DNA of 64,000 nucleotides from Candidatus Eiseniibacteriota bacterium (GTDB lineage Bacteria; Eisenbacteria; RBG-16-71-46), in the NCBI GenBank assembly GCA_963717935.1, contig CAVQXP010000003.1, forward strand, positions 1 to 64,000. Direction: 5' to 3'. The translations under genes were made by a program, and so were the position numbers. Shown here piece after piece: positions 3,367 to 61,751 of this stretch. Under the pieces are notes generated by a model. It was given only the letters and a program-made list of their open reading frames with translations, made no database searches and was not told the origin of the DNA. Numbering within the stretch: position 1 is the first letter of the stretch; the number at the start of each line of letters is the position of its first letter.

Positions 3367-6798
<3,432 letters not shown>

Positions 6799-6834: not shown

Positions 6835-11088
<4,254 letters not shown>

Positions 11089-11092
11089 CGCC

Positions 11093-11121: not shown

Positions 11122-11220
11122 CCCCGGTCTGCGCGGCAACGGTGCGTGTCTTTCCCTCGCGGGTGCCGTGGCCAGACTGACCGCGCAATCCCATTATCGA
11201 CAAGTGGTTGGAGGACATCC

Positions 11221-11694: not shown

Positions 11695-12165
11695 ATGCCT
11701 CGCAAGGGTTTCGTGAGACGCCGGGAGCCTGCGGCGGACCCGAAATACGACAGTGTCCTGGTGACGCGGTTCATCAACGGCCTGATGGAGACCGGTAAGC
11801 GCTCCATCGCCGAGCGTCATTTCTACGGCGCCATGACGATGGTCGAGCAGAAGACCGGACAGGACGCGATGACGGTCCTCAAGATGGCGATGACCAACGT
11901 CAAGCCCATGCTCGAGGTCAAGTCGCGGCGCGTCGGCGGTGCCAATTACCAGGTGCCGGTCGAGGTCCGTCCGGACCGGCGGAACGCTCTGGCGACGCGC
12001 TGGATCATCGGTTACGCGCTCGAGCGCCCGGACCACACGTTCGCTGAGAAGTTCGCTGCCGAGATCATGGCGGCCGCCAAGAACGAGGGCGGTGCCGTGA
12101 AGAAGCGCGAGGACACGCACAAGATGGCGGAGGCCAACAAGGCCTTCGCGCACTATCGCTGGTAG
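11695..12165 (+). CDS. rpsG: 30S ribosomal protein S7
   Basis: EVKSRRVGGANYQVPVEV, MAEANKAFAHYRW. Confidence 0.98.
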   Translation: MPRKGFVRRREPAADPKYDSVLVTRFINGLMETGKRSIAERHFYGAMTMVEQKTGQDAMTVLKMAMTNVKPMLEVKSRRVGGANYQVPVEVRPDRRNALATRWIIGYALERPDHTFAEKFAAEIMAAAKNEGGAVKKREDTHKMAEANKAFAHYRW

Positions 12166-12383
12166 GACGCGAGGCCCGGAGGAACCGGGCCGCGCTGGAA
12201 TCGCTCAAGACACCATCGACGGGTGAAGGTCGGCGTGAGGCCGGCCTGGGCCCGGATCCCGGAAGAGGTGCCGGGCCGGGTCTGAACACTGCGGATGGTC
12301 ACGCATCCCATCACCGCGCTTTCTTCGACGGAAAGGCAGGTGGTGCTTCGAGGTAACCTTCGTCGGATAGGAAGTCGCAGTAC

Positions 12384-14462: not shown

Positions 14463-14464
14463 GC

Positions 14465-14485
14465 CCGGGTCGCACCCGGTCTTTT
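14465..14485 (+). terminator. Short hairpin with T-tail between fusA and tuf
   Basis: CCGGGT-cgc-ACCCGG followed by TCTTTT. Confidence 0.35.
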
Positions 14486-14515
14486 GCGTCGTCCCGGACG
14501 ACGGAGGAAAGGTTC

Positions 14516-15715
<1,200 letters not shown>

Positions 15716-43192: not shown

Positions 43193-43437
43193 GGGCCTTC
43201 CTGTCGTGGAGCGCGCCTGCCCGCACCTGCGCGCGAGGCCATCGCTCCGTGGTTTCGGGATGCCGTGCCGGCGGGATCCGGCAGTCAAGAACGGCGGGAA
43301 CGTACCGTGTGCCTCCGCGGCTCACAAGCGGGCGGCAGAGCCCGGCCGGCGCGTGCCTTCGCGTGCCCCCCGGGCCTTGTGGTCTAATGTGCAGGGGCCG
43401 CCCACCCCGGACGGGGTGGGCCGCCCCGCGAGAGGGG

Positions 43438-45768
43438 GTGAAAACCACGCCAGAGCAGCATCCTGCTTCGCCACAGCGCCTGCGGCTCGAGATTCGCGGG
43501 GCGGTCCAGGGTGTGGGGTTCCGCCCCTTCGTCTTCCGCCTCGCCGGGGAACTGGCCCTGCCGGGCTGGGTCCTGAACGACGCCCGCGGGGTCTTCATCG
43601 AGGTCGAAGGCCCGCGCGAGACCCTGGAGCGTTTCCGCGAGCGGATCGTCTCGGAGCGCCCGCCGCGCGCCATCGTGCAGAGCGTCGAGGCCGCGTGGCT
43701 CCCGCCCTCGGGGTTCACGGCCTTCGAGATCCGTCACAGCAACGAGGCCGGCGTGAAGACCGCGCTGGTGTTGCCGGACCTGGCCACCTGCCCCGACTGC
43801 CTCGCCGAGACCCTCGATCCGGCCGAGCGGCGCCATGGCTATCCGTTCACGAACTGCACGAACTGCGGCCCGCGCTTCACCATCCTGTACGCGCTGCCCT
43901 ACGACCGGCCCAACACGACCATGCGCGGCTTCGTGCTCTGCGCGGAGTGCAGGCGGGAATACGAGGACCCGCGCGACCGCCGCTTCCACGCCCAGCCCAT
44001 CGGTTGCCCGGCCTGCGGCCCGGTCGTCGCCCTCTGGGACGCGTCGGGCGCGGGGCTGGTCCGCGGCGACGCGGCCCTCGCGGGCGCGGCGCGGGCGCTG
44101 GGCGAGGGCCGCATCCTGGCCCTCAAGGGTCTCGGCGGGTTCCACCTCGTGTGCGACGCGCGCAACGGGGACGCGGTCCGGCGTCTGCGTGAGAGGAAGC
44201 AGCGCCTCGGCAAGCCGCTCGCCCTGATGGTGCGCGACCTCGACCAGGCCCGCGAGTTGTGCGAGGTCTCGGACCTCGCGGCGCAGCAGCTCGCCTCGGT
44301 CGAAGCGCCGATCCTGCTCCTGCCGCGGCGTGCGGATGCGCCCGTGGCGCCGGAGGTGGCGCCGGGCAACCCGTATCTCGGCGTGATGCTCCCATCCACG
44401 CCGCTCCACCATCTCCTCCTGCACGCCTGCGCCTTCCCCGTCGTGGCGACCAGCGGCAACCTCACCGACGAGCCCATCTGCACGAACGAATACCGGGCCC
44501 TGCAGCGGCTCGGGGCCATCGCCGACGTCTTCCTGGTGCACGACCGCGCCATCGAGCGGCACGTGGACGACAGCGTGGCCTGGATCACGGCAGGCCGGGT
44601 GCGGCTGCTGCGCCGGGCGCGGGGCTGGGCGCCCCTGCCGGTGACGCTCGAGCGCGAGCTGCCGGTCATCCTCGCCGTGGGGGCGCACCTGAAGAACACC
44701 GTGGCCCTGAGCGTGGGCCGGCAGGTGTTCGTCAGCCAGCACATCGGCGACCTCGAGACCGAGGAGGCGATGTGCGCCTTCGAGCGCGTGATCGCCGACT
44801 TCCAGCGGCTCTACGACGTGCGGCCCGTGGCCATCGCCCACGACCTGCACCCCGACTACCTCTCGACCCGGTGGGCGCTGGCCGCCCCCGGCGGGGCGCG
44901 CCTGGTCGGGGTCCAGCACCACCACGCCCACCTCGTCTCCTGCCTGGCCGAGAACGGGGTGGAGGGCCGCGCCCTGGGCGTGTCCTGGGACGGTACGGGC
45001 TACGGGACCGACGGCACGGTCTGGGGCGGGGAGTTCCTGCTGGGGGACGCCTCCGGATTCGAGCGTGTGGCCCACCTCAGGCCCTTCCGGCTGCCAGGGG
45101 GCGAGGCTGCGGTCCGCGAGCCCCGCAGGGCCGCCCTGGGCCTGCTCTGGGAGGCCCGGGGCGAGGCGGCGCTGGCCGCGGAGGGTCCGGGGATCGGACG
45201 GCTGTTCGATGCTGCCGACCTCAAGGTCCTGGCCAGGATGCTGGACCGGGGCCTCAACAGCCCCGTCACCACCAGCATGGGCCGGCTGTTCGACGCGGTC
45301 GCGGCCCTGGTGGGCCTGCATCCGAGCACGACCTTCGAGGGCGAAGCGGCCATGGCCCTCGAATGGCTGGCCGACCCGGCGGAGCGGGGCGCCTATCCTG
45401 TAGACTCGCGGCCCGGCCCGGTCCCCGCGGGGGCGCGGCCGCCTCTCGTCCTGGACTGGGGGCCGCTGCTCGAGGCCGTGCTGGAAGATGTCCGCCGGGG
45501 TGTGCCGAGGGGCGTCATCGCGGCCCGCTTCCACAACGGGCTGGTGCGCGTGGCGGTGGACGTGGCCGCGGTGGTGGGCGAGGAGCGCGTGGCGCTCTCC
45601 GGCGGGTGCTTCCAGAACCGGCTCCTCACCGAGCGGCTGGCGGCGGCGCTGGAGCGGGCGGGCCACACCGTGCTGCTGCACGCGCAGGTGCCGCCGAACG
45701 ATGGCGGCGTGAGCCTGGGACAGATCGTCGTGGCCGCGGCGCAGTTGGGAATCGAAAGGGGAGACTGA
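43438..45768 (+). CDS. hypF: [NiFe]-hydrogenase maturation carbamoyltransferase HypF
   Basis: [12 protein letters not shown], two CxxC zinc fingers, [31 protein letters not shown]. Confidence 0.96.
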
Positions 45769-45770
45769 AC

Positions 45771-46073
45771 GTGTGTCTCGGCGTGCCGGGCAAGGTGCTC
45801 ACGGTCGAGGAGAACGCCCAGGGCCTGGCCATGGGCACCGTGAGCTTCGGTGGCGTGAACAAGGAGATCTACCTCGCCTGCGTGCCCGAGGCGAAGCCCG
45901 GCGACTACGTGATCGTGCACGCGGGCCTGGCCATCAGCATCATCAACGAGCAGGAGGCCGAGGAGACCTTCGAGATCCTGCGCCGGATGGACGAGCTGGC
46001 GGGGATCGAGGAACGTCCGCAGGACGCCTCCGGCTCCCCGCCGCCGCCGCCCGGGCCCGAACGCCAGGGGTGA
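45771..46073 (+). CDS. hypC: Hydrogenase chaperone HypC
   Basis: GTG start giving (M)[15 protein letters not shown]. Confidence 0.93.
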
Positions 46074-46075
46074 CC

Positions 46076-47160
<1,085 letters not shown>

Positions 47161-47164
<4 letters not shown>

Positions 47165-48234
47165 GTGACGCCGAGGCCGCGCCCGTCGAGTACCTGGGCC
47201 TGCAGTGCCCGATCCCGCTGAGCGAGTACCCGCAGGTGACGCTCGCCCACGGCGGCGGCGGACGGCTCACGCACGCGCTGATCGAGCGCATGTTCCTCGC
47301 GGCCTTCCGCAACCCCGCGCTCGAGCCGCTCCACGACGGCGCCGTGCTCGAGGTGCCGCAGGGCCGGATCGCGCTCAGCACCGACTCGTACGTGGTGAGC
47401 CCGCTCTTCTTCCCGGGCGGCGACATCGGTTCGCTCGCGGTGCACGGCACCGTGAACGACCTCGCCATGTGCGGCGCGTCGCCCCTGGCGCTCACCGCGG
47501 GCTTCGTGCTCGAGGAGGGCCTGCCCATGGACGACCTGTGGCGGATCGTGCGCTCCATGGCACGGGCGGCGAAGGACGCGGGCGTGAACATCGTGACCGG
47601 CGACACCAAGGTCGTGGACCGCGGCAAGGGCGATGGCGTGTTCATCAACACGACCGGCATCGGCCTGGTGCCCGAGGGCGTGAGCATCTCCCCGGCGCGC
47701 GCGCGGCCCGGGGACCGGCTGCTGCTGAGCGGGCGCATCGCCGACCACGGCATCGCCATCCTGTCGGTGCGCGAGGGCCTCTCGTTCGAGACCACGATCG
47801 AGAGCGACTCGGCCGCCCTGAACGGGCTCGTGGGCTCGCTGCTCGGGGCGCTCGGCGAGCGCGTCCACGTGCTGCGCGACCCCACGCGTGGCGGCGTGGC
47901 GAGCGCGACCAACGAGATCGCCGCGGCCGCGCAGGTGGGGCTGCGCCTCGAGGAGCGCGCGATCCCGCTGGCCGAGCAGGTGCGCGGCGCCTGCGAGATC
48001 CTCGGGCTCGACCCGCTCTACGTCGCGAACGAGGGCAAGTGCCTGGCCATCGTCGCTCCGGAAGCGGCGGAGCAGGCGCTCGCGCTCCTGCGCGCGCACC
48101 CGCTCGGGCGCGAGGCCGCCGTCATCGGCGAGGTGGTCGCGGACCACCCCGGCCGCGTGATGATGCACAGCCGCGTCGGCGGCATGCGCGTCGTGGACAT
48201 GCTCAGCGGGGAGCAGCTGCCGCGCATCTGCTGA
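47161..48234 (+). CDS. hypE: Hydrogenase maturation protein HypE
   Basis: [35 protein letters not shown]-terminal LPRIC. Confidence 0.96.
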
Positions 48235-48722
48235 TGCGGCCGGGACCGGGCATGACCGTGAAGCAGGCAACGAAGCGGCGCCCGGAGGGCACGCGGGAGC
48301 GGGCCGGGGAGTCCCCCGGGCGCTGGGAGCGCGTGTGGGCCGTGGTGCGCCGCATCCCGCCCGGGCGCGTGGCCACCTACGGCCAGGTCGCGGCCCTCGC
48401 GGGCCTCGGCCACCAGGCGCGCCAGGTCGGCTACGCGCTCCATGCCCTGCCCGCCGAGGGCTTCGCCCCGTGGCACCGGGTGGTCAACGCGCGCGGCGCG
48501 ATCAGCCTGCCGCCGGGCGGTGGAGCCGACGTGACCCAGCGCCTGCGGCTCGAGCGCGAAGGCGTGCGCTTCGACGCGCGCGGGCGGATCGACCTCGAGC
48601 GCTACGGCTGGCGGCCCGGCGGGCGGGTCACCGCCGCCGCGTCGCGTTCGCCGCTGCGGGCCTCGGCATCGCCCAGGTCTGCAACGCCACGGGCAGGTGC
48701 CCGCGGTCGCCCACCGCGGTGA
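48234..48722 (+). CDS. Alkyltransferase-like (ATL/YbaZ-type) DNA-binding protein
   Basis: IPPGRVATYGQVA, ARQVG, PWHRVVN (Trp at the catalytic Cys position of MGMT), Q..RLEREGV. The start could be 48252. Confidence 0.85.
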   Translation: MRPGPGMTVKQATKRRPEGTRERAGESPGRWERVWAVVRRIPPGRVATYGQVAALAGLGHQARQVGYALHALPAEGFAPWHRVVNARGAISLPPGGGADVTQRLRLEREGVRFDARGRIDLERYGWRPGGRVTAAASRSPLRASASPRSATPRAGARGRPPR

Positions 48723-49347
48723 TGCGGTAACCTCCGCCGGGCTTCACCTCGATCACGGTGAGGCTGCAGTTGGCGAGGCTCATCGTGAGCCAGAGTCTCG
48801 CGTCCGCGCCCAGCGCGCGGGTCACCAGCCAGCGGATCACGTTCCCGTGGCAGACCAGCACCTCCGTGCTGTCGCGCGCGGGCGAGGGGCGGAAGTAGCG
48901 GGCGAAGGTGCGCTCGAGTTGCACCGCGCACGAGTCGGCCTCGCCCGGCGCGAGACCCGCCATGACGTCCTTGCGGTAGGTGGGCGGCGTGCACTCGCGC
49001 AGGTCGCGGTCGGGCTCGGGGTTCCGGCCGGGCAGCGACCGCGCGATGATCTCCGCGGTCTCTCGCGCCCGCGTCAGGGTGCTCGCGTGCACGACGTCGA
49101 CTCGCGCGGGCCAGGCCGCGAGCCGCGCCCCGGTGAGCCGCGCCTGCTCCCGGCCCTCGGACAGCAGCGCCTTGCCGACCTCGGCATCGCGCGCGTCGTC
49201 CTCGTCGTAGACCCCGTGGCGGACGAGGATGAGCGTGCGCAGGCCCTTGCCCGGAGTCGCCTGGGCGTCGGCCCCGGGCGCGATTGCGCCGGCCAGCGTC
49301 AGCGTGCACAGGATGACCGCGCAGAACGGCCGCAGGCCCGGCCTCAT
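48628..49347 (-). CDS. Exported histidine-phosphatase family protein, PGAM5-like
   Basis: Signal peptide; LILVRHG, GREQARLTGARL, STLTRARETA, VCHGNVIR. Confidence 0.85.
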   Translation of the reverse strand: MRPGLRPFCAVILCTLTLAGAIAPGADAQATPGKGLRTLILVRHGVYDEDDARDAEVGKALLSEGREQARLTGARLAAWPARVDVVHASTLTRARETAEIIARSLPGRNPEPDRDLRECTPPTYRKDVMAGLAPGEADSCAVQLERTFARYFRPSPARDSTEVLVCHGNVIRWLVTRALGADARLWLTMSLANCSLTVIEVKPGGGYRITAVGDRGHLPVALQTWAMPRPAAANATRRR

Positions 49348-50012
49348 GACGCGGCCCCGCGCTTCTCCGACAGGCGCTCCTCGAGCAGGGCGCACCACTC
49401 GGCGATGCCCTGGCCGGTGGTGGCCGAGGTCACCAGCAGTGCGCCACCGGGCCGCAGCGCGGCGACCTGCGCGCGCGCCTCGTCGAGCTTGAAGGACACG
49501 TGGGGCAGCAGGTCGGCCTTCGTCACCAACGTCACCGCGGCCTTCGCGAAGATGGACGGGTACTTGAAGGGCTTGTCCTCGCCCTCGGTGACCGAGAGCA
49601 GCGCGACCTTGAAGTCCTCGCCCAGGTCGTAGGAGGTGGGGCAGACGAGGTTGCCCACGTTCTCGATGAAGAGCACGTCCAGCGGCCCCAGGTCGTGCGT
49701 CTCGAGCGCCCCGCGCACCTGCCGGGCGTCGAGGTGGCAGGATCCCCCGGTGAGGATCTGGTGGGCCGGGATGCCGAGCGAGCGCAGGCGGTCGGCGTCG
49801 CGCTCGGTGGCGATGTCGCCCTCGATGGCGCCGAGTCTCAGCTTCCCCCCGAAGGCGCGTACGGTCGCCTCGAGCAGCGTCGTCTTGCCGGAGCCGGGGG
49901 AGGAGATGAGGTTCACCACCAGCGTGCGCGCGGTCGCGAAGCGCTCGCGCAACGTCGCGGCCGCGGCCGCGTTGTCGGCCAGGATCCTCTGCCGTACGTC
50001 CACCTGGGTCAC
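49344..50012 (-). CDS. hypB: Hydrogenase nickel-insertion GTPase HypB
   Basis: SSPGSGKTTLLE, CHLDA, ENVGNLVCP, EGEDKPFKYP. Confidence 0.96.
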   Translation of the reverse strand: MTQVDVRQRILADNAAAAATLRERFATARTLVVNLISSPGSGKTTLLEATVRAFGGKLRLGAIEGDIATERDADRLRSLGIPAHQILTGGSCHLDARQVRGALETHDLGPLDVLFIENVGNLVCPTSYDLGEDFKVALLSVTEGEDKPFKYPSIFAKAAVTLVTKADLLPHVSFKLDEARAQVAALRPGGALLVTSATTGQGIAEWCALLEERLSEKRGAAS

Positions 50013-50377
50013 TTCGCCGTCTCCTCTTCATCGGGTGTGTACGAGAGGTCGATCACGTCCAGCTCGTCTCCGCCGGCGACCTGCACGGGCCCGCCGCAGT
50101 CCGGGCAGATCCTGAGCCAGTTGCCGGGCGCGCGCTCCTTCACCTCGCCGCAGGTCGCGCACGTCTGCCGCGCGGGGTGCCACTCGACCTCGAGCCTGGC
50201 CGCGGCGTCACGCCCGCCGGAGACCACGGCCTCCCAGGCGTAGACCAGCAGCTCGGGCTCGACCGCCGCCAGCTCGCCGATCGCGACCCGTGCCGAGTCG
50301 AGCCGCCCGGGCCCGCGGGCGTCGATGGTCGCCCGGCAGGTCCGGTAGATCTCGGTGGCGAGGCTCAGCTCGTGCAA
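50009..50377 (-). CDS. hypA: Hydrogenase nickel chaperone HypA
   Basis: GGAGGA RBS and TTG start giving MHELS; CATC and CPDC; G.EL. Confidence 0.93.
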   Translation of the reverse strand: MHELSLATEIYRTCRATIDARGPGRLDSARVAIGELAAVEPELLVYAWEAVVSGGRDAAARLEVEWHPARQTCATCGEVKERAPGNWLRICPDCGGPVQVAGGDELDVIDLSYTPDEEETAK

Positions 50378-50493
50378 GTGTCCTCCGTCGGGATGGTCCG
50401 GGCCGGGTGCGCCCCCGGTGTCCCGCGGCCGCATCTTACCGCGTCCGGCATGGCCACCCGAACCGCCCGCGCGTGCGCGGACCGTGCACCGGT

Positions 50494-52935
50494 TCAGGGT
50501 GGCGAATCGACGCCCGCTGCCGCCGCCGAGTCCGGCGCAGCGGCAAGCGAGTCGCCCTCCGCGCCGAGGCTGTCCGCGGGCGGATGGAACACGCCGCAGA
50601 CGCGGGTCGGCGCCGTACCGGGCAGGAAGGGCACGCGCAGGGCGGGGCAGTCGCCGCGCGCCAGCAGCCCGGTCCAGGGGTCGATCCAGGCCGGCGTGAG
50701 CCCGGCGTCGCCGGGGAAGGGCTCGTCCGGGAAGCCCTCCAGCATGGCTCCCATGATCCCGGCCCAGATCGGGAGCGCGACCTCCGCGGCCGGGCGCCGC
50801 AGGGTCCGCGGCGTGTCGTAGCCCACCCAGGTGCCGGCGACGAGATCCGGCACGAAGCCCACGAACCAGGCGTCGTGGTAGTCGTTGGTCGTGCCGGTCT
50901 TGCCGCCTGCGGGGCGCAGGAAGCCGTACACGGAGCGCAGCGGGTAGGAGACGCCGAAGATGACCACGTCCTCGAGCAGTCCGGTCATGAGGTCGGCGGT
51001 CGCGGCCGGCAGCACCTGCACCGCCGGAGCGGTGCGCGGGAGCAGGTCCCGCCCCGTGGCGTCCAGCACCGCGCGTACCGGCGTTGGGTCGTGCCGCACG
51101 CCGCGTCCCGGGAAGACGCTGTAGGCGCTGGTGAGGGCCAGCAGCGTGGCCTCGTTGGTGCCCAGCCCGATGCTCGCGACGGGTTTGAGTTTCCCGAGGC
51201 CGAAGCGCTCGGCGTAGCGCGCCACCTGCCTCGCACCGATCGCCTCGACCAGGTTCGCGGTCGCCACGTTGAGCGACTTGACGAGCGCCTTCGCGAGCGT
51301 GACCTCCGGGTGATACTCGTCCCTGTCGTTGCGCGGCTTCCACACGGTGTCGCCCGCGGCGAACTCGCGCCTCAGGTCGGGCACGGTGGAGCCGGGGCCG
51401 AATCGCGGCGGTCCGCGCCCGGGATCGAGCGCGGCCGCGTACACGATGGGCTTGATCGCCGAGCCGGTCTGGCGGCGTGCCCGGGTCGCGCGGTTGAAGT
51501 CACCGGTCCCGGCTGCGCGTCCGCCCACCACGGCGCGCACGAAGCCGGTCGCCGGATCGAGCGCGACGAATGCGCCCTGCAGCGGCCGGGGCCCGCGCCC
51601 GCTCCAGCGCTCGAGCGAGTCCACGCCGGCCGCGAGCCCCCGCTCGGCCTCGGCCTGCCAGACCAGGTCGAGCGGGGTGAACACCGAAAGGCCCCAGTGC
51701 TCGGCGGCGCCTTCGGGCAGGCGCTCGGAGAGATGCTGGCGCACGTAGCCCACGTAGCTCGGGAAGAACCCCGGAGGGGGCGGGCCGCGGCGCACGGCCA
51801 GCGGGCGGGCCCGGAGCCGCGCAGCCGTGCCGGCGTCGAGCGTGCCCGTGGCCACCAGGTCGCCGAGCACGGAGTTGCGCTGCACCAGCGCCCGGCGCGG
51901 GTCGTGGAACGGCGAGTAGGCGTTGGGTGCCGGGATGAGACCCGCGAGCAGCGCGGACCGCGCCACGTCGAGCGACTCGACCGGCGCGTCGAAGTACCAG
52001 CGCGCAGCCTCGGCCACGCCCGCCACGCCCCCTGACCCGTTCTGTCCCCAGTAGACCGAGTTCAGGTACATCTCGAGGATCTCGTCCTTCGAGAGCAGGG
52101 CCTCGAGCCCCACGGCGATCATCGCCTCGGAGAGCTTGCGGCTCCAGGTGCGCTCGCGCCCGAGGAAGAGCCCGCGCGCCAGTTGCTGCGTGATGGTGCT
52201 GCCGCCCTGGCGCACACCGCCCGCCTGCACGTTGGTGACGAGGGCGCGGAAGTTGCCGCGCAGGTCCAGCCCCCAGTGATGGCGGAAGCGGCGGTCCTCC
52301 GAGGCCACCACCGCCTCACGCAGGGCGCGCGGGATGCGCGCGAGCGGCACCCAGGTGCGCAGGACACGGTGCTCGTCGGCCAGCAGCGCCACGGCCAGGG
52401 GCTCGAGACGGGCCGGCCGCGAGGTATCGGGGGGCGCCGCCGGGGAGAGACCGCCCAGGCGCCGCACCGCGACGAGCCGGCCGCCCGCGAGCCGCAGGCG
52501 CACGCGCTCGGGTCCGCCCGCGCCGTCGGGGTCGTGCGTGGCCGCGAAGCCGCGCAGGAGGATCTCGAAACCGTCCGGCACGACGCGATACTCGCCCGGC
52601 ACGGCGGGGGCAGCGGCCTCGCGGTAGCCGCGTGCGTCGAGTTGCGCGCGCAGGTAGGTCCCGGGGCACGCGCGGCCCGGTGCGAGAGCCACGCCATCGG
52701 AGTAGACGCGCGAGGGGAATGACCACGACGGCCCGGTGGCGTGCCGCGCGCGCAGGGCCCGCACCTTGATGGCGAGGTGCACGAAGCCGGCGAGCGCGCC
52801 CAGCGCCAGGAGGACGAGCCCGGCGAACGCGGCCGAACGCCACGGCCGGGCGCGCACGAGCGCGCGCAGCGCGGCGAGCGGCGCCCCGCGGGCGCCGGGG
52901 CCGGAGCCACCCGGTGATTCGTGTCGAGTCGTCAT
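50494..52935 (-). CDS. mrcB: Class A penicillin-binding protein, PBP1b-like (TM, UB2H-like, GT51, transpeptidase)
   Basis: EDRRF..H.G, GGSTITQQL, RKLSE, YLN; S-x-x-K (GSAIKP), SLN, KTGT. Confidence 0.88.
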   Translation of the reverse strand: MTTRHESPGGSGPGARGAPLAALRALVRARPWRSAAFAGLVLLALGALAGFVHLAIKVRALRARHATGPSWSFPSRVYSDGVALAPGRACPGTYLRAQLDARGYREAAAPAVPGEYRVVPDGFEILLRGFAATHDPDGAGGPERVRLRLAGGRLVAVRRLGGLSPAAPPDTSRPARLEPLAVALLADEHRVLRTWVPLARIPRALREAVVASEDRRFRHHWGLDLRGNFRALVTNVQAGGVRQGGSTITQQLARGLFLGRERTWSRKLSEAMIAVGLEALLSKDEILEMYLNSVYWGQNGSGGVAGVAEAARWYFDAPVESLDVARSALLAGLIPAPNAYSPFHDPRRALVQRNSVLGDLVATGTLDAGTAARLRARPLAVRRGPPPPGFFPSYVGYVRQHLSERLPEGAAEHWGLSVFTPLDLVWQAEAERGLAAGVDSLERWSGRGPRPLQGAFVALDPATGFVRAVVGGRAAGTGDFNRATRARRQTGSAIKPIVYAAALDPGRGPPRFGPGSTVPDLRREFAAGDTVWKPRNDRDEYHPEVTLAKALVKSLNVATANLVEAIGARQVARYAERFGLGKLKPVASIGLGTNEATLLALTSAYSVFPGRGVRHDPTPVRAVLDATGRDLLPRTAPAVQVLPAATADLMTGLLEDVVIFGVSYPLRSVYGFLRPAGGKTGTTNDYHDAWFVGFVPDLVAGTWVGYDTPRTLRRPAAEVALPIWAGIMGAMLEGFPDEPFPGDAGLTPAWIDPWTGLLARGDCPALRVPFLPGTAPTRVCGVFHPPADSLGAEGDSLAAAPDSAAAAGVDSPP

Positions 52936-53569: not shown

Positions 53570-53852
53570 CAAGGGCGGCCGCCTGACGGGAAGGTCGTGG
53601 CCGCGGAGCCACGACCGACGGGCCGGCAGGGGCAGTCTGGGCTTGTCGGGGCTGCCGACGCCGGTCCACTCGTACGAGATTCAGCTTGGAGAACGCCGTT
53701 GCCGGTAGGAGACTTCCAGCCGGGCGGCCCGCATGGCTGCCGTGTGCGGATTCCCCTTCATCAGCCGCGAGGTCCCTCGGGATGATCGCTCGATCGTCAT
53801 TCGGGACCGGATGCGGTCCCGGCGCCGCCGCAGCGCGCGGGAGCGCTTCTCC

Positions 53853-55811
53853 ATGAGCGTCCCGGTGCGCATCCTGTTCGTCGAGGATTCCCGCGACGAC
53901 GTGGATCTGGTCCTCCACGAGCTGCGCCGCAGCGGCTTCACGCCCGATTACTGGGTCGTGGAGACCGAGGAGGCGATGCGCCGGGCGCTGGCCGACGAGC
54001 GCTGGGACCTGATCATCGCCGACCACGCCATGCCGCACTTCGACGCTCCCGGCGCGCTGGCCGTGCTCCAGCGGAGCGGGCTGGACCTGCCGCTCATCGT
54101 GGTCTCGGGCCACATCGGCGAGGAGCAGGCCGTGGCCTGCATGAGGGCGGGGGCCAGCGACTACCTCACCAAGGACAACCTGGCCCGGCTGGTGCCCGCG
54201 GTCGAGCGCGAGTTGCGCGAGGCCGCCCAGCGGCGCGAGGCGATGGCGGCGCTGAGCACCAGCGAGGAGCGCTACCGGCTGCTGGTGGAGAACTCCGCCG
54301 ACATGATCACGCTCCAGGACGGCCGGGGAGTCATCACCTTCGCGAGCCCCTCCGTCAGCCAGGTGCTCGGGTTCCCGCCCGCGAAGATCCTGGGCCGGAA
54401 GCTGCGTGATCTGGTCCACGAGGACGACGCGAAGATCCTGGAGGCGGCGCTGGACGAGGTGCTCGCCCACGGCTTCACCCCGCTGATCACGGGACTGCGG
54501 TTTCGTCACCGCGACGGTACCTGGCGCATCGTCGAGGGCAGCGCGGTGCGGATGGTCGAGCCCGGCGGCAAGGTTGGCATCGTCACCACGGGGCGGGACA
54601 TCACCGAGCGCATCCAGTTCGAGGCACAGCTGCACCAGGCCCAGAAGATGGAGGCAGTCGGCCGGCTGGCCGGGGGCGTGGCTCACGGCTTCAACAACCT
54701 GCTCACCGTGATCCAGGGGTACAGCAACCTGCTGCTCGACCAGCTCGACGAGAACCACGTCCTCCACCAGGAGGTGGCCGAGATCAAGCGCGCGGCGGAC
54801 CGGGCCGCGACCCTGACGCAGCAACTCCTGACGTTCGGCCGCAAGCCGGTCCTGAGCCTGCGCCCCGTGGACCTCAACCAGATCATCGGAGCGCTGGTCG
54901 CCAGGCTGCGCCAGCTCGCCGGCGAGGGGGTCGAGCTCACGACGAAGCTCGCGGCCGACCTCGCCCCGGTCCGGGTGGATCCCGGCCAGGTCGAGCAGGT
55001 GGTCGTGAACCTGACGACGAACGCGAGCGACGCCATGCCGCAAGGTGGCGTGCTCTCGATCGAGACCGCGAACGTGGAATTGGACGCCGCCAGCGCGCGG
55101 CGCTGCGCCGTGCAGCCCGGGTCCTTCGTCCTGCTCGCCGTGACGGATACGGGAGCGGGCATGGACGCGGCCACGCAGGCCCGTCTCTTCGAGCCCTTCT
55201 TCACGACCAAGGAGCCGGGCAAGGGCCTGGGGCTCGGGCTCTCCAGCGTGTACGCGATCGCGCGCCAGTGCGGGGGCGGCGTCCTTGTCTCCAGCGAGCC
55301 GGGACGCGGGAGCAGTTTCAGGATCTACCTGCCTCGCGTCGAGGGTCAAGCCGAGGCGCGGCCGCCGAAGCTGGCTCCCCACCAGGCCCGTGGCGACGAG
55401 ACCATCGTGTTGGTCGAGGATGATCTGCTCGTGAAGAACCTGGTGCACGACGTATTGCGCAAGAACGGTTACCAGGTGATGGAGTTCGTCAATGGCCGTG
55501 AGGCGCTGGCCCGGGTGAAGAGCCACAGTGGACTCATCCACCTGCTCGTCACCGACGTGGTGATGCCGGGCATGAGCGGCATCGAGCTGGCTCGCCAGCT
55601 CGCGCCGGGCCGCCCGGAGATGCGCGTCCTCTTCTTCTCCGGGTACACCGATGACCTGGTCGAGCGCCAGGGCGCGCTGCAGCCCGGGCGTGACTTCCTG
55701 CAGAAGCCGTTCACCCCGGACACGCTGCTGCGCAGAGTGCGCGCGCTGCTCGATGCGCCGGCTCTCGTCGCGGACGAGGGCGCCGCCCCGCCCGGCTCGC
55801 GCGACGACTGA
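53853..55811 (+). CDS. Cytoplasmic hybrid kinase REC-PAS-HisKA-HATPase-REC (CckA-like)
   Basis: QAQKMEAVGRLAGGVAHGFNNLL, FEPFFTTK, GLGL, LVTDVVMP, LQKPF. Confidence 0.92.
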   Translation: MSVPVRILFVEDSRDDVDLVLHELRRSGFTPDYWVVETEEAMRRALADERWDLIIADHAMPHFDAPGALAVLQRSGLDLPLIVVSGHIGEEQAVACMRAGASDYLTKDNLARLVPAVERELREAAQRREAMAALSTSEERYRLLVENSADMITLQDGRGVITFASPSVSQVLGFPPAKILGRKLRDLVHEDDAKILEAALDEVLAHGFTPLITGLRFRHRDGTWRIVEGSAVRMVEPGGKVGIVTTGRDITERIQFEAQLHQAQKMEAVGRLAGGVAHGFNNLLTVIQGYSNLLLDQLDENHVLHQEVAEIKRAADRAATLTQQLLTFGRKPVLSLRPVDLNQIIGALVARLRQLAGEGVELTTKLAADLAPVRVDPGQVEQVVVNLTTNASDAMPQGGVLSIETANVELDAASARRCAVQPGSFVLLAVTDTGAGMDAATQARLFEPFFTTKEPGKGLGLGLSSVYAIARQCGGGVLVSSEPGRGSSFRIYLPRVEGQAEARPPKLAPHQARGDETIVLVEDDLLVKNLVHDVLRKNGYQVMEFVNGREALARVKSHSGLIHLLVTDVVMPGMSGIELARQLAPGRPEMRVLFFSGYTDDLVERQGALQPGRDFLQKPFTPDTLLRRVRALLDAPALVADEGAAPPGSRDD

Positions 55812-55907
55812 GCCTCGCGCCCGTCGCCGCCGCCTTCTTCCGGCCGGGGCCCCCACGGCCGGGAGGGGGCGTTCTCTTCCCCCTCATGTTGTGGCAGAGT
55901 GCGCGGC

Positions 55908-57854
55908 ATGACGATGCCCGACCCCCAGCGCGCGCGGACTCTCTTCGTCACGGCCTTCGGGCGGGCTCCCGTGCCGCCCGGCCCGTGGCGCCACCTGGTC
56001 GTGGTGGACGTGCCGCGCCAGCGGCTCGTGCTGCTCGACCGGCAGGGTGAAGGACTCGCCGAGTACCGGGTGTCCACCGCGGCCGCGGGGATCGGCGGCG
56101 AGGCGGGCTCGCTCCGGACACCTCCCGGTCTCCACCGCATCCACGCCCGGATCGGCGCGGGCCAGCCCGCGGGCGCGGTCTTCGCGAGCCGCGAGCCGAC
56201 CGGCGAGATCTGGCGCGGCGAACTGCGCGGCGACGATCTCATCCTCTCGCGCGTGATCACGCTCGACGGCCTCGAGGCGGGTGTGAACCGCGGGCCGGGG
56301 CGCGATTCGCTCGAGCGCTTCATCTACCTGCACGGCACGAATCACGAGGCCGCGCTGGGCGAGCCCGCCTCGCATGGCTGCGTCCGGCTGGGCAACGAGG
56401 ACGTGATCGAGTTGTTCGACCGCGTGGCCGAGGGCGACCTGGTGGCGGTGCTGGGCGAGGTGCCCGTCCCCGACTGGCGGCGCGGGCGCTTCCACTACGC
56501 CGGGCTCGGCGGCAGCGGCATGAGCGCGCTCGCCCAGTTCCAGGTCATGCGCGGCGGTGTTGCGAGCGGCAGCGACCGGGCCTTCGACCGTGGCGAGCGC
56601 TCCGGCGCTCGCGCGCAGCTCGAGCGCCTGGGCATCCGCGTCACGTCCCAGGACGGCAGCGGGCTCGAAGGTGCGGGAGCCCTCGTGGTCTCGACCGCGG
56701 TCGAGCGCGAGGTGCCGGACTATGCGACGGCCCGCCGGCTGGGCGTGCCCGTCGTGCACCGCTCGGAGCTGCTTGCGCGCTTCGTCGCCGACCATCGCGC
56801 CATCGCGGTCACCGGCACCAGCGGCAAGTCCACCGTGGTGGCCATGATCTTCGAGATCCTGCGCGGCGTTGGGCGCGACCCCTCGGTCATCACCGGCGGC
56901 GACCTGGTGATGCTCCAGCGGCAGGGCCTGTGGGGGAACGCCTGGGCCGGGCGCTCGGACCTGCTCGTGGTGGAGGCCGACGAGAGCGACGGTTCGGTCG
57001 TGCGTTACGAACCCGCGGTGGGCGTGGTCCTGAACCTGCAGCGCGACCACCGGGAGATGGACGAGGTGGCCGCGATGTTCCGCGCGTTCCGCGGGCGCGC
57101 CCGCGAAGCGTTCGTGGTGGGGGAGGGCGCGAACCTCGCGGTGCTCGCGGTGGGCGCGGTCGTGTTCGGCGTGGGTCCGGCGGCCGGCGTGCGCGGTGTG
57201 GACGTGGCGCTCGATCCGGGCAGTTCCGCTTTCACCGTCGAGGACGTGCGCTTCACGCTCCCCGTGCCCGGGCGCCACAACGTCGAGAACGCGCTGGCCG
57301 CGATCGCCGCCTGCCGCGCGGTGGGCGTGCCGCTCGCGGGGATGGCGGCGCCGCTCGCGCGCTTCCAGGGCGTGGGCCGGCGCTTCCAGTCGCTGGGCAC
57401 GGCGCGCGGCGTCGAGGTCGTGGACGACTTCGCCCACAACCCGGCCAAGATCGCCGCGGCCCTCGCGACCGCCCAGGCACGGGCCGCATCTGGCGGCGGG
57501 CGCGTGCTCGCCGTCTACCAGCCGCACGGCTACGGCCCCACGCGCTTCCTGCGGCGCGATTTCGTCGAGACGTTCGCGGCCGCGCTGCGTCCCGCGGACC
57601 GGCTCTGGATGCTGGAGGTGTTCTACGCCGGCGGGAGCGCCACGCGCGACTTCTCCGCCGCCGACATCGTGGGCGAGATCGCCGCGCGCGGCGTGGCGGC
57701 GGAGTTCGCGGAGTCGCGCGCATGGCTGACCGAGCGCATCGCCGGGGAGGCGCGGGAGGGCGACCTCGTCATCGTGATGGGAGCGCGCGACCCGTCGCTC
57801 ACGCAGTTGGCGCGCGACACGCTGGCGAGGCTGGGGGGCGGGTCGGGCGCCTGA
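55908..57854 (+). CDS. Fusion of an N-terminal YkuD (L,D-transpeptidase-fold, ElsL-like) domain and a C-terminal MurC-like Mur ligase
   Basis: YRVSTA, TPPGLH, IYLHGTN...SHGCVRL; then GLGGSGMSALA, GTSGKST, EADESD, DDFAHNP, YQPHGY. One continuous frame with no signal peptide. Confidence 0.88.
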   Translation: MTMPDPQRARTLFVTAFGRAPVPPGPWRHLVVVDVPRQRLVLLDRQGEGLAEYRVSTAAAGIGGEAGSLRTPPGLHRIHARIGAGQPAGAVFASREPTGEIWRGELRGDDLILSRVITLDGLEAGVNRGPGRDSLERFIYLHGTNHEAALGEPASHGCVRLGNEDVIELFDRVAEGDLVAVLGEVPVPDWRRGRFHYAGLGGSGMSALAQFQVMRGGVASGSDRAFDRGERSGARAQLERLGIRVTSQDGSGLEGAGALVVSTAVEREVPDYATARRLGVPVVHRSELLARFVADHRAIAVTGTSGKSTVVAMIFEILRGVGRDPSVITGGDLVMLQRQGLWGNAWAGRSDLLVVEADESDGSVVRYEPAVGVVLNLQRDHREMDEVAAMFRAFRGRAREAFVVGEGANLAVLAVGAVVFGVGPAAGVRGVDVALDPGSSAFTVEDVRFTLPVPGRHNVENALAAIAACRAVGVPLAGMAAPLARFQGVGRRFQSLGTARGVEVVDDFAHNPAKIAAALATAQARAASGGGRVLAVYQPHGYGPTRFLRRDFVETFAAALRPADRLWMLEVFYAGGSATRDFSAADIVGEIAARGVAAEFAESRAWLTERIAGEAREGDLVIVMGARDPSLTQLARDTLARLGGGSGA

Positions 57855-57951
57855 CCGGGGCCCCGCGCCGAAGCCGGGACGTGGGTCCGGGCCGCGGCTT
57901 GTCGGGCAGATCAGGGCCTCTGGCCATGGACCCGCCGCTCGGAGCGGCGGG

Positions 57952-59700
57952 CTATTGCTGGTCGCGCACCAGAGACTCAAATGCGGCCAACCGCTCCGGA
58001 TCCGCCACATTGTTGAAGTAGAAGCATCTGAACATCGCGTAGTCGCGGCGCACGATGGAATCCGGCAGGGAGCCCGCGCGGGCGATGTACCGGTCAAGGG
58101 CGGTGGGAACGTCGGCGAATCGAGCGCCGCGACGGGCCAGCTCGGCCATCAGGGCGGGCTCCCAGCGGAGCACGCAGGCGACCTCGCCGTCGAGGTCGAC
58201 CTCCAGGGGAGAGATGCTGTCCGCCAGGGCGAGCGCCGGCACGACGATCGGATCCAGCCCGAAATTGACCTTCCTCTCGTCGAGCAGGTAGGCGGCCGTG
58301 GGCCTCTTCTCGTGTCCTATCCGCCCGCGCTCCGTCAGGGGTTGCCGGGCGATGGCCCGGTCGGTCAGGCCTGTCGAGCACTCGATCGCCACCGGCACCT
58401 TCGAGTAGTAGATCACCCGGGTGTCGGCCCCCATGAAGACGGCCCTCACCGGCAGCCCGCGCAGGTAGCGAGCCATGACTTCGCCTCTTCTGCGGAGCTC
58501 CCTGCACTTCTCCGGTGCGTAGTAGAGCCTCTCGTTCACGATCCCGTCGACCCAGCCTTCTCCGGAGAACGGATAGGGCGTGCACGCGACTCCCAGCAGC
58601 AAGCCTGCCGCGGCCGCGAACTTCGCGAACGTACCCTTCGGCACCAGACGCAGGACGGCAAGCTCGGTGAGGATGAGATAGAAGGGCGTCACGGGGATCA
58701 GCAGGCGGGCGAACATGAAGTCGCCGCCCACGCGAACGACGTAGAACGTGTAGGGGAGCGCCAGGGACAGGGCCAGCAGCGCCTCCGTCCTCCATCCCAT
58801 CGCAGGTCCCGTGGGCTTGCCCCTTCGTGTCCGAGCCGGCAGGGCCGCGAGGACTGCTGCTGCCACGGTGCCCACTGCCAGCACCCAGTACTTGGAGAAG
58901 AAGAGCCGAGTGTAGGTCCAGCCCTGCGAGTACCAGGCCAGCGCAGCGGACTTGGCGTAGTAGGGATTGGGGAAGAAGTCACCGTAATACCAGAGTCTCC
59001 ACGCGATGAGGGGGAGCGACACTGCAAGGAACCCGGCGCCGAAGGCCACGGCCGGCCAGGGCCTGGCGCGTCCGGTCACGAGCACGAACAGGCCCACGGC
59101 GACCGCCAGGAGCACGCCGTCCGGCCGAGTCAGCGCAGCCACGCCGAAGATGAACCCACCCCATCCGAGCCGTGACGGTCTCGCGGTTCCGCCGGCGACG
59201 ACGACGAAACCGAGTACGGCAAGGAACGTGAAGAGCGAGGTCTCCAGCCCGCTGGTGGCGTAGACGTTCCAGTCGGCGTGCACCGCGGCGAGCAGCGCCG
59301 CGAGCGGGACCACGATGGAGCTTCCCCCCGATGCCCGCGCACGCTGCAGGCTGCGCAGGCCCAGGAGCAGGATGCTGCCCGCGTAGAAGGCGATTCCCCA
59401 CGCGACGGACCAGGCCTCCGGGTCGAATCCCAGCCGGATGCCCAGCGCGGCCCAGAGCGTCCACAGGAGGTTGCTGTAGCCCTCGACCCGTTCGCCGGCA
59501 TTGAACACCAGGCCCAACCCGTGGACGAGGTTCTCGGCGTACCGGAACGAGATGAACGCGTCGTCGCAGATCCACGCCACGTGCCGGGCCGCGATGATTC
59601 CCCAAACGACGGCAAGGGTGGCACCTGCAGTGACGGAAACATCGCGGGCAGTGGATGGCCGCATCGCGGCGAGCTTGAGCCAGATGCTCGTCCTGGCCAC
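57952..59700 (-). CDS. Polytopic membrane GT-C-type glycosyltransferase (AftB-like)
   Basis: DDAFISFRYAENL..G.GLVFNAGERVEGYSNLLW, SGLETSL, LTRPDG, PNPYYAK, GGDFM..R; many TM segments. Confidence 0.75.
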   Translation of the reverse strand: MARTSIWLKLAAMRPSTARDVSVTAGATLAVVWGIIAARHVAWICDDAFISFRYAENLVHGLGLVFNAGERVEGYSNLLWTLWAALGIRLGFDPEAWSVAWGIAFYAGSILLLGLRSLQRARASGGSSIVVPLAALLAAVHADWNVYATSGLETSLFTFLAVLGFVVVAGGTARPSRLGWGGFIFGVAALTRPDGVLLAVAVGLFVLVTGRARPWPAVAFGAGFLAVSLPLIAWRLWYYGDFFPNPYYAKSAALAWYSQGWTYTRLFFSKYWVLAVGTVAAAVLAALPARTRRGKPTGPAMGWRTEALLALSLALPYTFYVVRVGGDFMFARLLIPVTPFYLILTELAVLRLVPKGTFAKFAAAAGLLLGVACTPYPFSGEGWVDGIVNERLYYAPEKCRELRRRGEVMARYLRGLPVRAVFMGADTRVIYYSKVPVAIECSTGLTDRAIARQPLTERGRIGHEKRPTAAYLLDERKVNFGLDPIVVPALALADSISPLEVDLDGEVACVLRWEPALMAELARRGARFADVPTALDRYIARAGSLPDSIVRRDYAMFRCFYFNNVADPERLAAFESLVRDQQ

Positions 59701-60020: not shown

Positions 60021-61751
60021 ATGAAGCGGGTCACGCAGGGGCGATCTTGGAGCGAAACGCTCTCGGGCATCACCGCCGACGCATCGTCCGGAACCCCCGC
60101 ACAGCGCGACCGCGACTGGCCGCTGCGGCTGGCACTCGCCGTCTCGCTGGCGATGGCCGCTCACCTCCTGCTCAGCGCGCTCGGATTCAGTCCCACCGAC
60201 GACGGCTTCATCCTCGCGCAGAGCCGTCGCATCCTGTCCGGGGAGGTCCCCCACCGCGACTTCATCTCGATCCGTCCGGTGGGCTCCGCCATCCTGCACG
60301 TTCCCGAGCTGCTGTGGGGCGGAAGCCACGCATTCCTGCTGTCCCGGTTCATCTACTGGCTCGAGGCCGCGCTCGGCTGCTGGTGCTGGCTCGAGATCGC
60401 GCGCATGCGCCTGCGGCTGAGCACGGGCGCGCTCGCCTCGCTGCCTCTTCTCGTGCTCGCGTTCATGCTCTCGACGCACGCCTTCCCACCCATGGCATGG
60501 CACACGGTGGACGGCGTGTTCCTGGCCTCGCTGGGCTTCCTGCTGGCACAGCGGCCGGGCGCTCGGGGTCGGGCGCTCGGCTATGCCCTGGTGGGCGCCT
60601 CGGCGCTCTGCAAGCAGAGCTTCCTGCCGCTGCTGCCCGCGGCGGTGATCCTGAACGGCGATGCGCGGCGCGCCGCCGCGTGGATCGCGGTCGCGCTTCC
60701 CGCGGCGGCATACGGACTCGTGCTGGTGGCGCTTGGCGCCGGGCACGACCTGCGACTCCAACTGCTGGCACTCACTGACGTCTGGGAGAGCGGCGTGAAG
60801 CCGTTCACGCACCAGCCGTGGGCCCTCGTGGGCATCATCCTCGGGGCGGCGAGCACGATGTGCCTTCGAGCGGGATCCGGGCGCTGGCCGATTCCCCCCG
60901 CACTCGTGCGCGCGCTTCCCTGGCTGGGCGCTCTCCTGATGTGGGGCGTGTTCGTCCATGCGGGGCGGCTCATGAACGCCGAGGGTTATGTGTTCATCGA
61001 TCGCGCCGCGTACATCCTGTTCGGGGCCGGCCTCGGGCTGACGGTGACCACGATGCCCTTCCGCGACGCGCGGCCGCTCGCCGCGATCGCCGCGTTTGCG
61101 CTCGCGGTGGCCTGGAGCAGCTCGGTCTCGCTCGGCTATCGCACGCCGGCGCTGGCGTCGGGGCCGTTGGCGCTCGTCGCGGCGCTCGGCCTGCCGTGGC
61201 TGCTCGGCGGTCCCGTCCGCGCCGGTGCGACGCGCGCTGCGGGGCTGTTGGCAACGGTGGCGGTGCTGGTGATCGCGGGTCACTGGTGGTCGGCGCGACA
61301 CGATCACATCTATCACGAGCAGACGGCACCGGCGCTCACGTTCCGGCTGGACGGCGTGCTGCCAGGCGGCGACGGGATCCGGACCAACCGCAACACGTAC
61401 GCGGCGCTCGCCGACCTGCGCGAGGCCACGCGGCGCACGCATGGCAAACCCTACGCGATCCTCGTGGACGTGCCGGGGTGGTGGGCCTGCGCCGAGCAGC
61501 GGAATCCGCTTCCCACAGACTGGCCGCAGTCCATCGAGCTGTGCACGCCGCCGCTGCAGCAGCGCTTCTCGGAGAGTCTGGTGCGCCAGCGGGGGCGCCT
61601 GGCCGTGCTCGTGCAGAAGGTCGAGCTTGCGAACGTGCAGGACGGCTTCGCGCCGGTTGCCCCGACGAACTTCTACTACTATGCGGGGACGCTCGCGCGG
61701 CAGTTGTACACGAGGACCAGCGAAACGCGCTACTGGACGATCTGCGAGTAG
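60021..61751 (+). CDS. Polytopic membrane protein, probable GT-C glycosyltransferase
   Basis: TDDGFILAQSRRILSGEVPHRDF in the first loop, LCKQ motif, about 10-12 hydrophobic segments and a soluble C-terminal domain. Confidence 0.6.
   Translation: MKRVTQGRSWSETLSGITADASSGTPAQRDRDWPLRLALAVSLAMAAHLLLSALGFSPTDDGFILAQSRRILSGEVPHRDFISIRPVGSAILHVPELLWGGSHAFLLSRFIYWLEAALGCWCWLEIARMRLRLSTGALASLPLLVLAFMLSTHAFPPMAWHTVDGVFLASLGFLLAQRPGARGRALGYALVGASALCKQSFLPLLPAAVILNGDARRAAAWIAVALPAAAYGLVLVALGAGHDLRLQLLALTDVWESGVKPFTHQPWALVGIILGAASTMCLRAGSGRWPIPPALVRALPWLGALLMWGVFVHAGRLMNAEGYVFIDRAAYILFGAGLGLTVTTMPFRDARPLAAIAAFALAVAWSSSVSLGYRTPALASGPLALVAALGLPWLLGGPVRAGATRAAGLLATVAVLVIAGHWWSARHDHIYHEQTAPALTFRLDGVLPGGDGIRTNRNTYAALADLREATRRTHGKPYAILVDVPGWWACAEQRNPLPTDWPQSIELCTPPLQQRFSESLVRQRGRLAVLVQKVELANVQDGFAPVAPTNFYYYAGTLARQLYTRTSETRYWTICE

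Follow-up and report, generated by a model that had tools for sequence, protein, structure and literature searches.

The 64,000-nucleotide (nt) stretch of DNA analysed here (the window; positions 1 to 64,000 of contig CAVQXP010000003.1, assembly GCA_963717935.1, from a Candidatus Eiseniibacteriota bacterium) carries a gene that joins an N-terminal YkuD domain of the ElsL type to a MurC-like ligase. The gene is a single open frame on the forward strand without an internal stop, and encodes a protein of 648 amino acids (aa) from the ATG at 55908, or of 651 aa from a GTG at 55899; residues of the fusion protein are numbered here from ATG 55908. The GC content at third codon positions (GC3) of this frame, 0.94, is of the type that marks a coding frame. 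Pfam recognised four domains in the fusion protein, every one above its gathering cut-off, and no further domain such as one for peptidoglycan binding (Table 1). An initial annotation made from the DNA sequence had claimed an uninterrupted frame of about 648 aa in which a YkuD domain with an intact catalytic motif is followed by a complete Mur ligase. The listing and translation of open reading frames (ORFs) agree with this, being free of stops from 55908 to 57854. The IYLHGT and SHGCVRL motifs lie exactly where they had been placed, and the four Pfam domains and their conserved motifs indicate that both halves are apparently catalytically intact.

Table 1. Features of the fusion gene and its upstream neighbour in the window (positions in nt).
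Feature	Residues	Positions	Strand	Remarks
Hybrid histidine kinase		53733-55811	+	directly upstream of the fusion
Whole ORF	1-648	55908-57854	+	start ATG 55908 (GTG 55899 possible), stop 57852-57854; GC3 0.94
YkuD / ElsL-type domain	29-181	55992-56450	+	Pfam YkuD, 78.6 bits, E 9e-22
IYLHGT	139-144	56322-56339	+	
Catalytic motif H142 ... S155-H156-G157-C158-V-R160	142-160	56331-56387	+	at least 98% conserved in 122 fused homologues
SHGCVRL	155-161	56370-56390	+	
Short linker	182-194	56451-56489	+	includes VPVPD; collinear in the distant fused clade P0124; frame change of split loci falls here
Mur_ligase, N-terminal (nucleotide-sugar binding) domain	195-296	56490-56795	+	Pfam PF01225; GxGGSGMS and GSD conserved; family-specific R224 after GSD
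Mur_ligase_M, middle (ATP) domain	301-469	56808-57314	+	Pfam PF08245; P-loop GTSGKST at 56814-56834
Mur_ligase_C, C-terminal (incoming amino acid or peptide) domain	491-627	57378-57788	+	Pfam PF02875
DDFAHNP	506-512	57423-57443	+	F508/H510 correspond to H. influenzae MurC Y346/H348
QPHGYGP	538-544	57519-57539	+	H540/G541/P544 correspond to H. influenzae MurC H376/R377/R380
GARD	625-628	57780-57791	+	family-specific Arg-Asp; MurC has GAG(N/S/D) there

Residues K307, E356, D358-E359, N376, D380-H381 and N461 of the middle domain, all conserved to at least 90%, are the same in E. coli MurC. A full-length structure model of the fusion protein was confident, with a predicted local distance difference test score (pLDDT) of 89.3 and a predicted template modelling score (pTM) of 0.81. 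A hydropathy scan found no N-terminal hydrophobic segment; the sole Kyte-Doolittle peak (2.18, residues 410-428) lies inside the middle domain of the ligase. Since the YkuD domain is fused to an ATP-dependent ligase, we infer that the protein is probably cytoplasmic. A scan of positions 55700-58100 for promoters and terminators found none.

ElsL of Acinetobacter baumannii is described as a cytoplasmic L,D-carboxypeptidase of cell-wall recycling (PMC8649774). A tblastn search of plasmid-labelled records matched an A. baumannii gene that scores 328.2 bits on the ElsL model NF040925, above its cut-off of 270, and that is therefore a genuine ElsL. The N-terminal domain of the fusion is 43% identical to this protein over 155 aa (E 2e-45), spanning ElsL residues 11-161 of 167. 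It scores 128.6-130.3 bits on NCBIfam model NF040925, whereas models of exported E. coli L,D-transpeptidases give it at most 28 bits. Residues H142, S155, H156, G157, C158 and R160, each conserved to the degree given in Table 1, are identical in ElsL. These comparisons uphold the proposal of the initial annotation that the domain is ElsL-like, and its scores favour ElsL over the exported E. coli L,D-transpeptidases. An AlphaFold2 model of the domain has the YkuD fold (pLDDT 80.7). Its best structure matches in the PDB, with B. subtilis YkuD at the top (template modelling score 0.51), share only 15-21% identity with it, and among the PDB matches listed none is described as ElsL. The published ElsL orthologue set left out proteins longer than 200 aa (PMC8649774), so fused forms were filtered from it; at 648 aa, the fusion protein lies outside the 105-200 aa single-domain criterion of that set. 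Although it falls short of the model cut-off and of the single-domain size, the N-terminal domain is a relative of ElsL and probably works as ElsL does.

The fusion protein reached neither the MurC nor the Mpl model cut-off. It scored 286.5 bits on the MurC model TIGR01082 (cut-off 335.1) and 112.7 bits on the Mpl model TIGR01081 (cut-off 388.7). On the same two models, E. coli MurC scored 609.7 and 182.5 bits, and E. coli Mpl (b4233) 272.9 and 914.4 bits. By these scores the ligase is about as far from MurC as Mpl is, and is not Mpl. All three Mur ligase domains are present in it, and the nucleotide loop, the P-loop and the Mg/ATP residues are intact. In a FastTree phylogeny of 149 sequences rooted on Mpl, with one MurC and one Mpl reference, E. 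coli MurC fell outside the whole of a group that we call family X, a name defined here for a MurC-like sister family with the signature DD[FY]AHNP, QPHG[FY]xP and GAR[DN]. The fusion protein bears all three motifs. YkuD fusions occupy two places in this tree, and may nevertheless have a single origin, given their shared linker. No Pfam or NCBIfam model specific to family X came up. The ligase had initially been called a divergent MurC; its likeness to MurC stands, but it is better described as a member of a large and distinct MurC-like family with a remodelled amino-acid pocket.

This remodelling is found at the site where MurC holds its amino-acid substrate. In H. influenzae MurC, the incoming L-Ala is held by Y346, H348, H376, R377 and R380 (PMC3060825). 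HMMER alignment to the structures 1GQQ and 1P3D places F508, H510, H540, G541 and P544 of the fusion protein at these five positions. Both arginines that bind the L-Ala carboxylate are thus gone (R377G, R380P). R380 is kept by the MurCs of H. influenzae, M. bovis, R. faecis, A. baumannii and E. coli, and E. coli Mpl likewise lacks both arginines at the aligned positions. An HMMER search over 1.84 billion cluster representatives, from clusters at 50% identity, returned 27,274 matches at E ≤0.001 and 3,580 at E ≤1e-30, and motifs were counted in the 139 representatives of at least 420 aa among the best 150 of these matches. HG[FY]xP was present in 132/139 and GAR[DN] in 136/139, while the canonical QPHx[YF][STA]R was present in 0/139. 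Of the seven exceptions to HG[FY]xP, five differ from it by one residue, one is a protein that stops short of the motif and one has a garbled sequence at that point. At 50% identity, at least 139 clusters have HG[FY]xP or a one-residue variant. Eight residues that differ from E. coli MurC (R224, Q248, E266, N511, K514, G576, R627 and D628) are at least 85% conserved in 145 family members, and the net balance of the pocket relative to E. coli MurC is the loss of two Arg and two Glu and the gain of one Lys and one Arg. Judged on its sequences, family X is a large sister family of MurC type and corresponds neither to canonical MurC nor to Mpl. A paper on Frankia MurC1/MurC2 (PMC7231273), whose accessible text holds no residue-level data, gave no lead.

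A search for homologues with the same architecture, which the initial annotation had proposed, found it to be common. The best 120 relatives in a collection of 5.8 billion proteins (67-100% identity) all have the four Pfam domains (120/120), and are currently named 'L,D-transpeptidase family protein' or 'UDP-N-acetylmuramate--alanine ligase'. When the species genomes of GTDB were scanned, 564 stretches matched and 373 of them encode a relative of the query (ligase-only forms included); 80 loci were kept and classed by ORF-level BLAST. The loci are mainly from Candidatus Eisenbacteria, with up to 86% identity, and include Methyloceanibacter and related Alphaproteobacteria at 63-69% identity, three cultured Methyloceanibacter species among them (L014, L020 and L027). 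One fused ORF was found at 54/80 loci, two adjacent ORFs at 6/80 and the ligase only at 10/80, seven of the last being Elusimicrobiota or Endomicrobium; a further 7/80 are cut by contig ends and 3/80 were missed by the gene caller used. One locus classed as ligase-only (L011) also appears split on inspection, and six is thus a lower bound for the split loci. Homologues are mostly fused; that they are always separate genes, the outcome named beforehand as telling against the fusion, is not the case. A second fused clade, P0124, is 43% identical and yet collinear, linker included. Look-alike Atlas clusters with YkuD and Mur ligase domains have 115 members (commonest phylum Thermodesulfobacteriota) and 74 members (commonest Pseudomonadota). 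The family-X ligase, fused or stand-alone, occurs in records labelled Candidatus Eisenbacteria, Elusimicrobiota, Holophagaceae and Alphaproteobacteria; the Atlas clusters add Thermodesulfobacteriota and Verrucomicrobiota, as leads only. The fused gene belongs to a widespread, unstudied family. Searches of open full-text papers found no description of a YkuD-Mur ligase fusion or of a murein peptide ligase other than Mpl, in line with the earlier remark that no characterised protein of this architecture was known.

The split loci have a consistent form. At all six inspected (L010, L011, L013, L028, L031 and L062), the ligase is read in the +1 frame with respect to YkuD, and the YkuD ORF ends 20-40 codons ahead of the conserved AIPDPxGxGRF at the start of the ligase region. 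This common +1 offset points to one inherited split and not to random sequencing errors. Protein searches also returned dozens of short YkuD proteins (mostly 194 aa) and ligases of 437-518 aa, from which about 10 putative pairs (YkuD of 179-217 aa, ligase of 441-504 aa) were matched by equal size of the longest contig in both tables. Together, the split loci and the matched short proteins indicate that the same gene pair occurs naturally in both split and fused form.

We considered whether the fusion could be an artefact, a frameshift or misassembly that joined two neighbouring genes. Split forms of the same gene pair do exist within the same phylum, and sequence errors are frequent at the start of the window, where rpoB is spread across several frames and positions 1-4000 form a low-GC block. 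The same fused ORF is present at 54 of the 80 loci, including isolate genomes of the three Methyloceanibacter species; the linker is collinear even with the 43%-identical clade; and the full-length structure model is confident. We regard an artefact as extremely improbable. Since it is collinear with 54 fused ORFs elsewhere, the fusion is neither a one-off nor an artefact of this contig. As for the start of the contig itself, GC is 0.37-0.48 in the first ~4 kb of the window, compared with ~0.67 beyond, and the two ORFs in this low-GC start (13-1815 and 1835-2929) have no Pfam match. The adjoining rpoB (2953-6118) is fragmented across four or more frames, and the ORF of rpoC (7549-11088) begins inside Rpb1 domain 1. 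This suggests that approximately the first 7 kb are chimeric or error-rich.

The surroundings of the gene differ among lineages. In the window, the neighbours of the fusion are the hybrid histidine kinase and a membrane protein, and there is no dcw cluster in the 64 kb. In Elusimicrobiota, a stand-alone family-X ligase (55-58% identical) begins only a few bases from where the gene of a hydrolase of about 657 aa ends; this hydrolase has a signal-peptide-like N-terminus followed by Peptidase_C39_2, SH3_16 and NlpC/P60 domains (Pfam matches at L040, L049 and L061). An Amidase_3 gene lies downstream of the ligase, and this cluster, common to seven loci, is outside the dcw cluster. At five of the Elusimicrobiota loci (L040, L049, L060, L061 and L066; ~8000-11350) the operon order is a small ferredoxin, hydrolase, family-X ligase, two unannotated ORFs and Amidase_3. 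At L061 the hydrolase stop codon is missing, so that hydrolase and ligase read through as 1105 aa; this product is unlikely to be functional because the hydrolase carries an export signal. At 26/26 alphaproteobacterial loci (within L014-L080), a 968-aa LdtD-like protein with Scaffold and YkuD domains is encoded convergently beside the fusion (for example at 11904-14810 (-) in L015), and cobalamin-synthesis genes lie upstream.

Other genes of these regions are recorded here for completeness. Two genes upstream of the fusion in the window is a class A penicillin-binding protein with UB2H, transglycosylase and transpeptidase domains (50494-52935 (-)). Downstream are ORFs of 582 aa (57952-59700 (-)), whose translation is hydrophobic by eye, and 576 aa (60021-61751 (+)); neither has a Pfam match even at E 0.01. 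The remainder of the window is a high-GC piece of chromosome, with a ribosomal-protein/rpoBC region and hyp genes: HypF (43249-45768), HypD (45773-47164), a CobW/HypB-like GTPase (49344-50012 (-)) and HypA (within 50009-51343 (-)). Among the Hyp genes sits an ORF (47205-48722) whose product has an O6-methylguanine-DNA methyltransferase DNA-binding domain. At L064, a gene for a PMT_2 (ArnT-like) glycosyltransferase lies next to the fusion on its upstream side. Neighbours in Eisenbacteria (CitMHS permease, GcpE, ABC-F) were considered as a functional clue and set aside as plain synteny within one phylum. The search of plasmid-labelled records returned ElsL-type matches only (4 Acinetobacter, 1 Caballeronia) and no family-X ligase on an annotated replicon. 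The Caballeronia match is a stand-alone ElsL-like ORF, 47.5% identical to the N-terminal domain (L084; Caballeronia insecticola p1, 3001-3474), in a stretch of the 1.28-Mb replicon without an annotated feature.

We propose that the fusion protein trims a recycled stem peptide and then ligates it to UDP-N-acetylmuramic acid (UDP-MurNAc), and give this reading a probability of about 0.5. The ElsL-type domain would act as an L,D-carboxypeptidase, with Cys158 as nucleophile and His142 and His156 as catalytic partners, and would remove D-Ala4 from the recycled tetrapeptide, whether this is free or carried on MurNAc or UDP-MurNAc. The family-X module would then join the trimmed peptide to UDP-MurNAc at the expense of ATP, as Mpl does, to give UDP-MurNAc-tripeptide, and MurF would complete the precursor. 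We infer both the substrates and the order of the steps. Re-use of the untrimmed tetrapeptide is reported to be toxic in ldcA and elsL mutants (PMC8649774, PMC13046382, PMC9790009), which provides a reason to couple trimming and ligation: a single chain, or closely neighbouring genes in the split forms, would keep untrimmed peptide out of re-use and so avoid toxic UDP-MurNAc-tetrapeptide. Null alleles of mpl suppress elsL toxicity (PMC8649774), which makes Mpl the functional partner of ElsL.

This recycling role is favoured because the L-Ala pocket of the ligase is rebuilt, and because the two halves are coupled in so many forms (the 54 fused loci, at least six split pairs, about 10 further pairs and the second fused clade). 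It is also favoured because the gene lies outside the dcw cluster both in the window and in Elusimicrobiota, where it follows an exported hydrolase and precedes Amidase_3. The fusion is 65-66% identical between the Eisenbacteria window and an alphaproteobacterial genus, Methyloceanibacter, and given this the YkuD-ligase module looks accessory-like. Two other Alphaproteobacteria, A. tumefaciens (Rhizobiales) and C. crescentus, reportedly have neither Mpl nor LdcA (PMC13046382, PMC9790009), and the fused family may recycle wall peptides where the known recycling enzymes are missing.

Several observations weigh against a recycling role. The ligase is closer to MurC in sequence, with 191 bits to MurC in the PDB versus 68 to Mpl, and in fold, where Foldseek of the full-length model gave a TMt of 0.89 to closed H. 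influenzae MurC versus 0.70 to Mpl. Some family-X members exceed the MurC cut-off, for example at 359 bits. R382 of the MurC loop is retained as R or K, and might stand in for a lost arginine. In Holophagaceae (L030 and L076), the gene directly follows a canonical murD (367.5 bits). The upstream order there is ftsI, an apparently fused murE-murF, mraY, then genes for CBS, acetyl-CoA hydrolase and EAL proteins on the other strand, then murD, so that the dcw cluster appears rearranged. In L076 (303-12857) the ligase stands alone and is followed by a major facilitator superfamily transporter, whereas in L030 (219-5340) it is fused to YkuD. A de novo MurC could be expected at this position, which is the strongest point for such a role. 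Against the peptidase half, the ElsL model score of 130 bits is far under the cut-off of 270.

Family X could accordingly be a genuine L-Ala-adding MurC, as the housekeeping enzyme or as a second isozyme, in which case the fusion would tie a recycling enzyme, in its expression or stability, to the ligase that opens de novo synthesis. Neither the 80 loci (~20 kb each, flanks of at most 10 kb) nor the 64-kb window showed a canonical MurC motif, which would also fit this, but is uninformative on the rest of the genomes. Against it, the arginines that bind the L-Ala carboxylate are replaced in 132 of the 139 representatives, with compensating charge changes elsewhere in the pocket. The MurC-model score of the fusion is on a par with that of Mpl, a different enzyme. 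Moreover, the gene lies outside the dcw cluster in the window and in Elusimicrobiota, and is found at 65-66% identity in Methyloceanibacter, which as a member of the Alphaproteobacteria presumably carries a normal dcw murC. Fusions of non-sequential Mur enzymes do exist, such as MurC-Ddl and MurG-MurC (PMC10214165), and thus a union of a recycling enzyme with a de novo ligase would have parallels. On balance we consider an L-Ala-adding enzyme unlikely, though a serious contender.

A different third substrate or acceptor can also be envisaged for the ligase, such as L-Ala-D-Glu, another amino acid at position 1 or a molecule other than UDP-MurNAc; alternatively, the YkuD domain could edit the last residue of the precursor by transpeptidation or exchange. 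Exchange reactions are possible for YkuD enzymes. Family-specific changes are present in the sugar-nucleotide domain too (R224 after GSD, and E266), and the partner hydrolase in Elusimicrobiota is an NlpC/P60 protein with SH3_16, a type of enzyme reported to act as a gamma-D-Glu-diaminopimelate (A2pm) amidase that shortens the stem peptide (PMC4600125). However, the UDP-binding glycine loop, the GSD and all ATP/Mg motifs are kept as in MurC, and the closest characterised relative of the N-terminal domain is described as a carboxypeptidase and not a transpeptidase (PMC8649774). We judge these variants improbable, more so than an L-Ala-adding MurC.

To our knowledge, direct re-use of cell-wall peptides proceeds only through LdcA (or its analogues LdcV and ElsL) together with Mpl, mostly in Gammaproteobacteria. 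Many bacteria are stated to lack LdcA and Mpl and presumably degrade the peptides instead (PMC13046382, PMC9790009). As a Rosetta-stone clue, the conserved association of an ElsL-type trimming enzyme with a ligase that has a rebuilt L-Ala pocket suggests that a large unannotated ligase family may do the job of Mpl in other phyla. We tentatively propose, at somewhat less than even odds, that family X arose independently as a second class of murein peptide ligase and, paired with or fused to ElsL-type carboxypeptidases, supplies the missing LdcA/Mpl step. If this is true, the annotation of genes now named 'L,D-transpeptidase family protein' or 'UDP-N-acetylmuramate--alanine ligase' would be corrected. 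If instead the ligase is an ordinary MurC, the finding shrinks to a new type of Mur chimera.

ElsL (NF040925) shares with the N-terminal domain the YkuD fold and the HGT...SHGC(V/I)R motif; ElsL has no export signal or peptidoglycan-binding domain, and none is apparent in the fusion protein. ElsL is a separate protein, whereas here the domain is the N-terminal part of 648 aa, or a protein of about 194 aa beside the ligase gene in the split forms. MurC (TIGR01082; structures 1P3D, 2F00, 7BVA and 9IR5) is the closest family to the ligase in sequence and fold, and shares with it the nucleotide loop, the P-loop, the Mg/ATP residues and H376. MurC keeps R377 and R380, in contrast to the R377G and R380P of the ligase, which also has E358K, E414G and G466R (the latter three in E. 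coli numbering). Mpl (TIGR01081; P. arcticus 3HN7) is a three-domain Mur ligase, as is the ligase module of the fusion, and its reaction (UDP-MurNAc, tripeptide and ATP) is the one that by analogy the module may perform. Like family X, Mpl is without both MurC arginines at the aligned positions, and has a 4-6-residue insertion just past the loop. Its loop reads EPRSNT and its C-terminal motif SNG, where the ligase has QPHGYGPT and GARD. Mpl is not an orthologue of the ligase, whose 112.7 bits on the Mpl model are below even the 182.5 of E. coli MurC.

The LdcA and Mpl pair of E. coli follows the same logic as that proposed here, in which the tetrapeptide is trimmed first and then ligated. There, the S66 peptidase LdcA and Mpl are two proteins; here, a YkuD enzyme and a family-X ligase of other lineages would do this from one gene. 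Natural Mur chimeras likewise combine a Mur ligase with another cell-wall enzyme in one chain, and five major types have been described: MurE-MurF, MurC-Ddl, MurC-MurB, MurG-MurC and MurD-FtsW (PMC10214165). A YkuD type is not among these five, and the accessible text of that paper has 0 mentions of 'YkuD' or 'transpeptidase'. Unlike the partners in the named chimeras, the partner of the ligase in the fusion is a YkuD-family peptidase of the recycling type.

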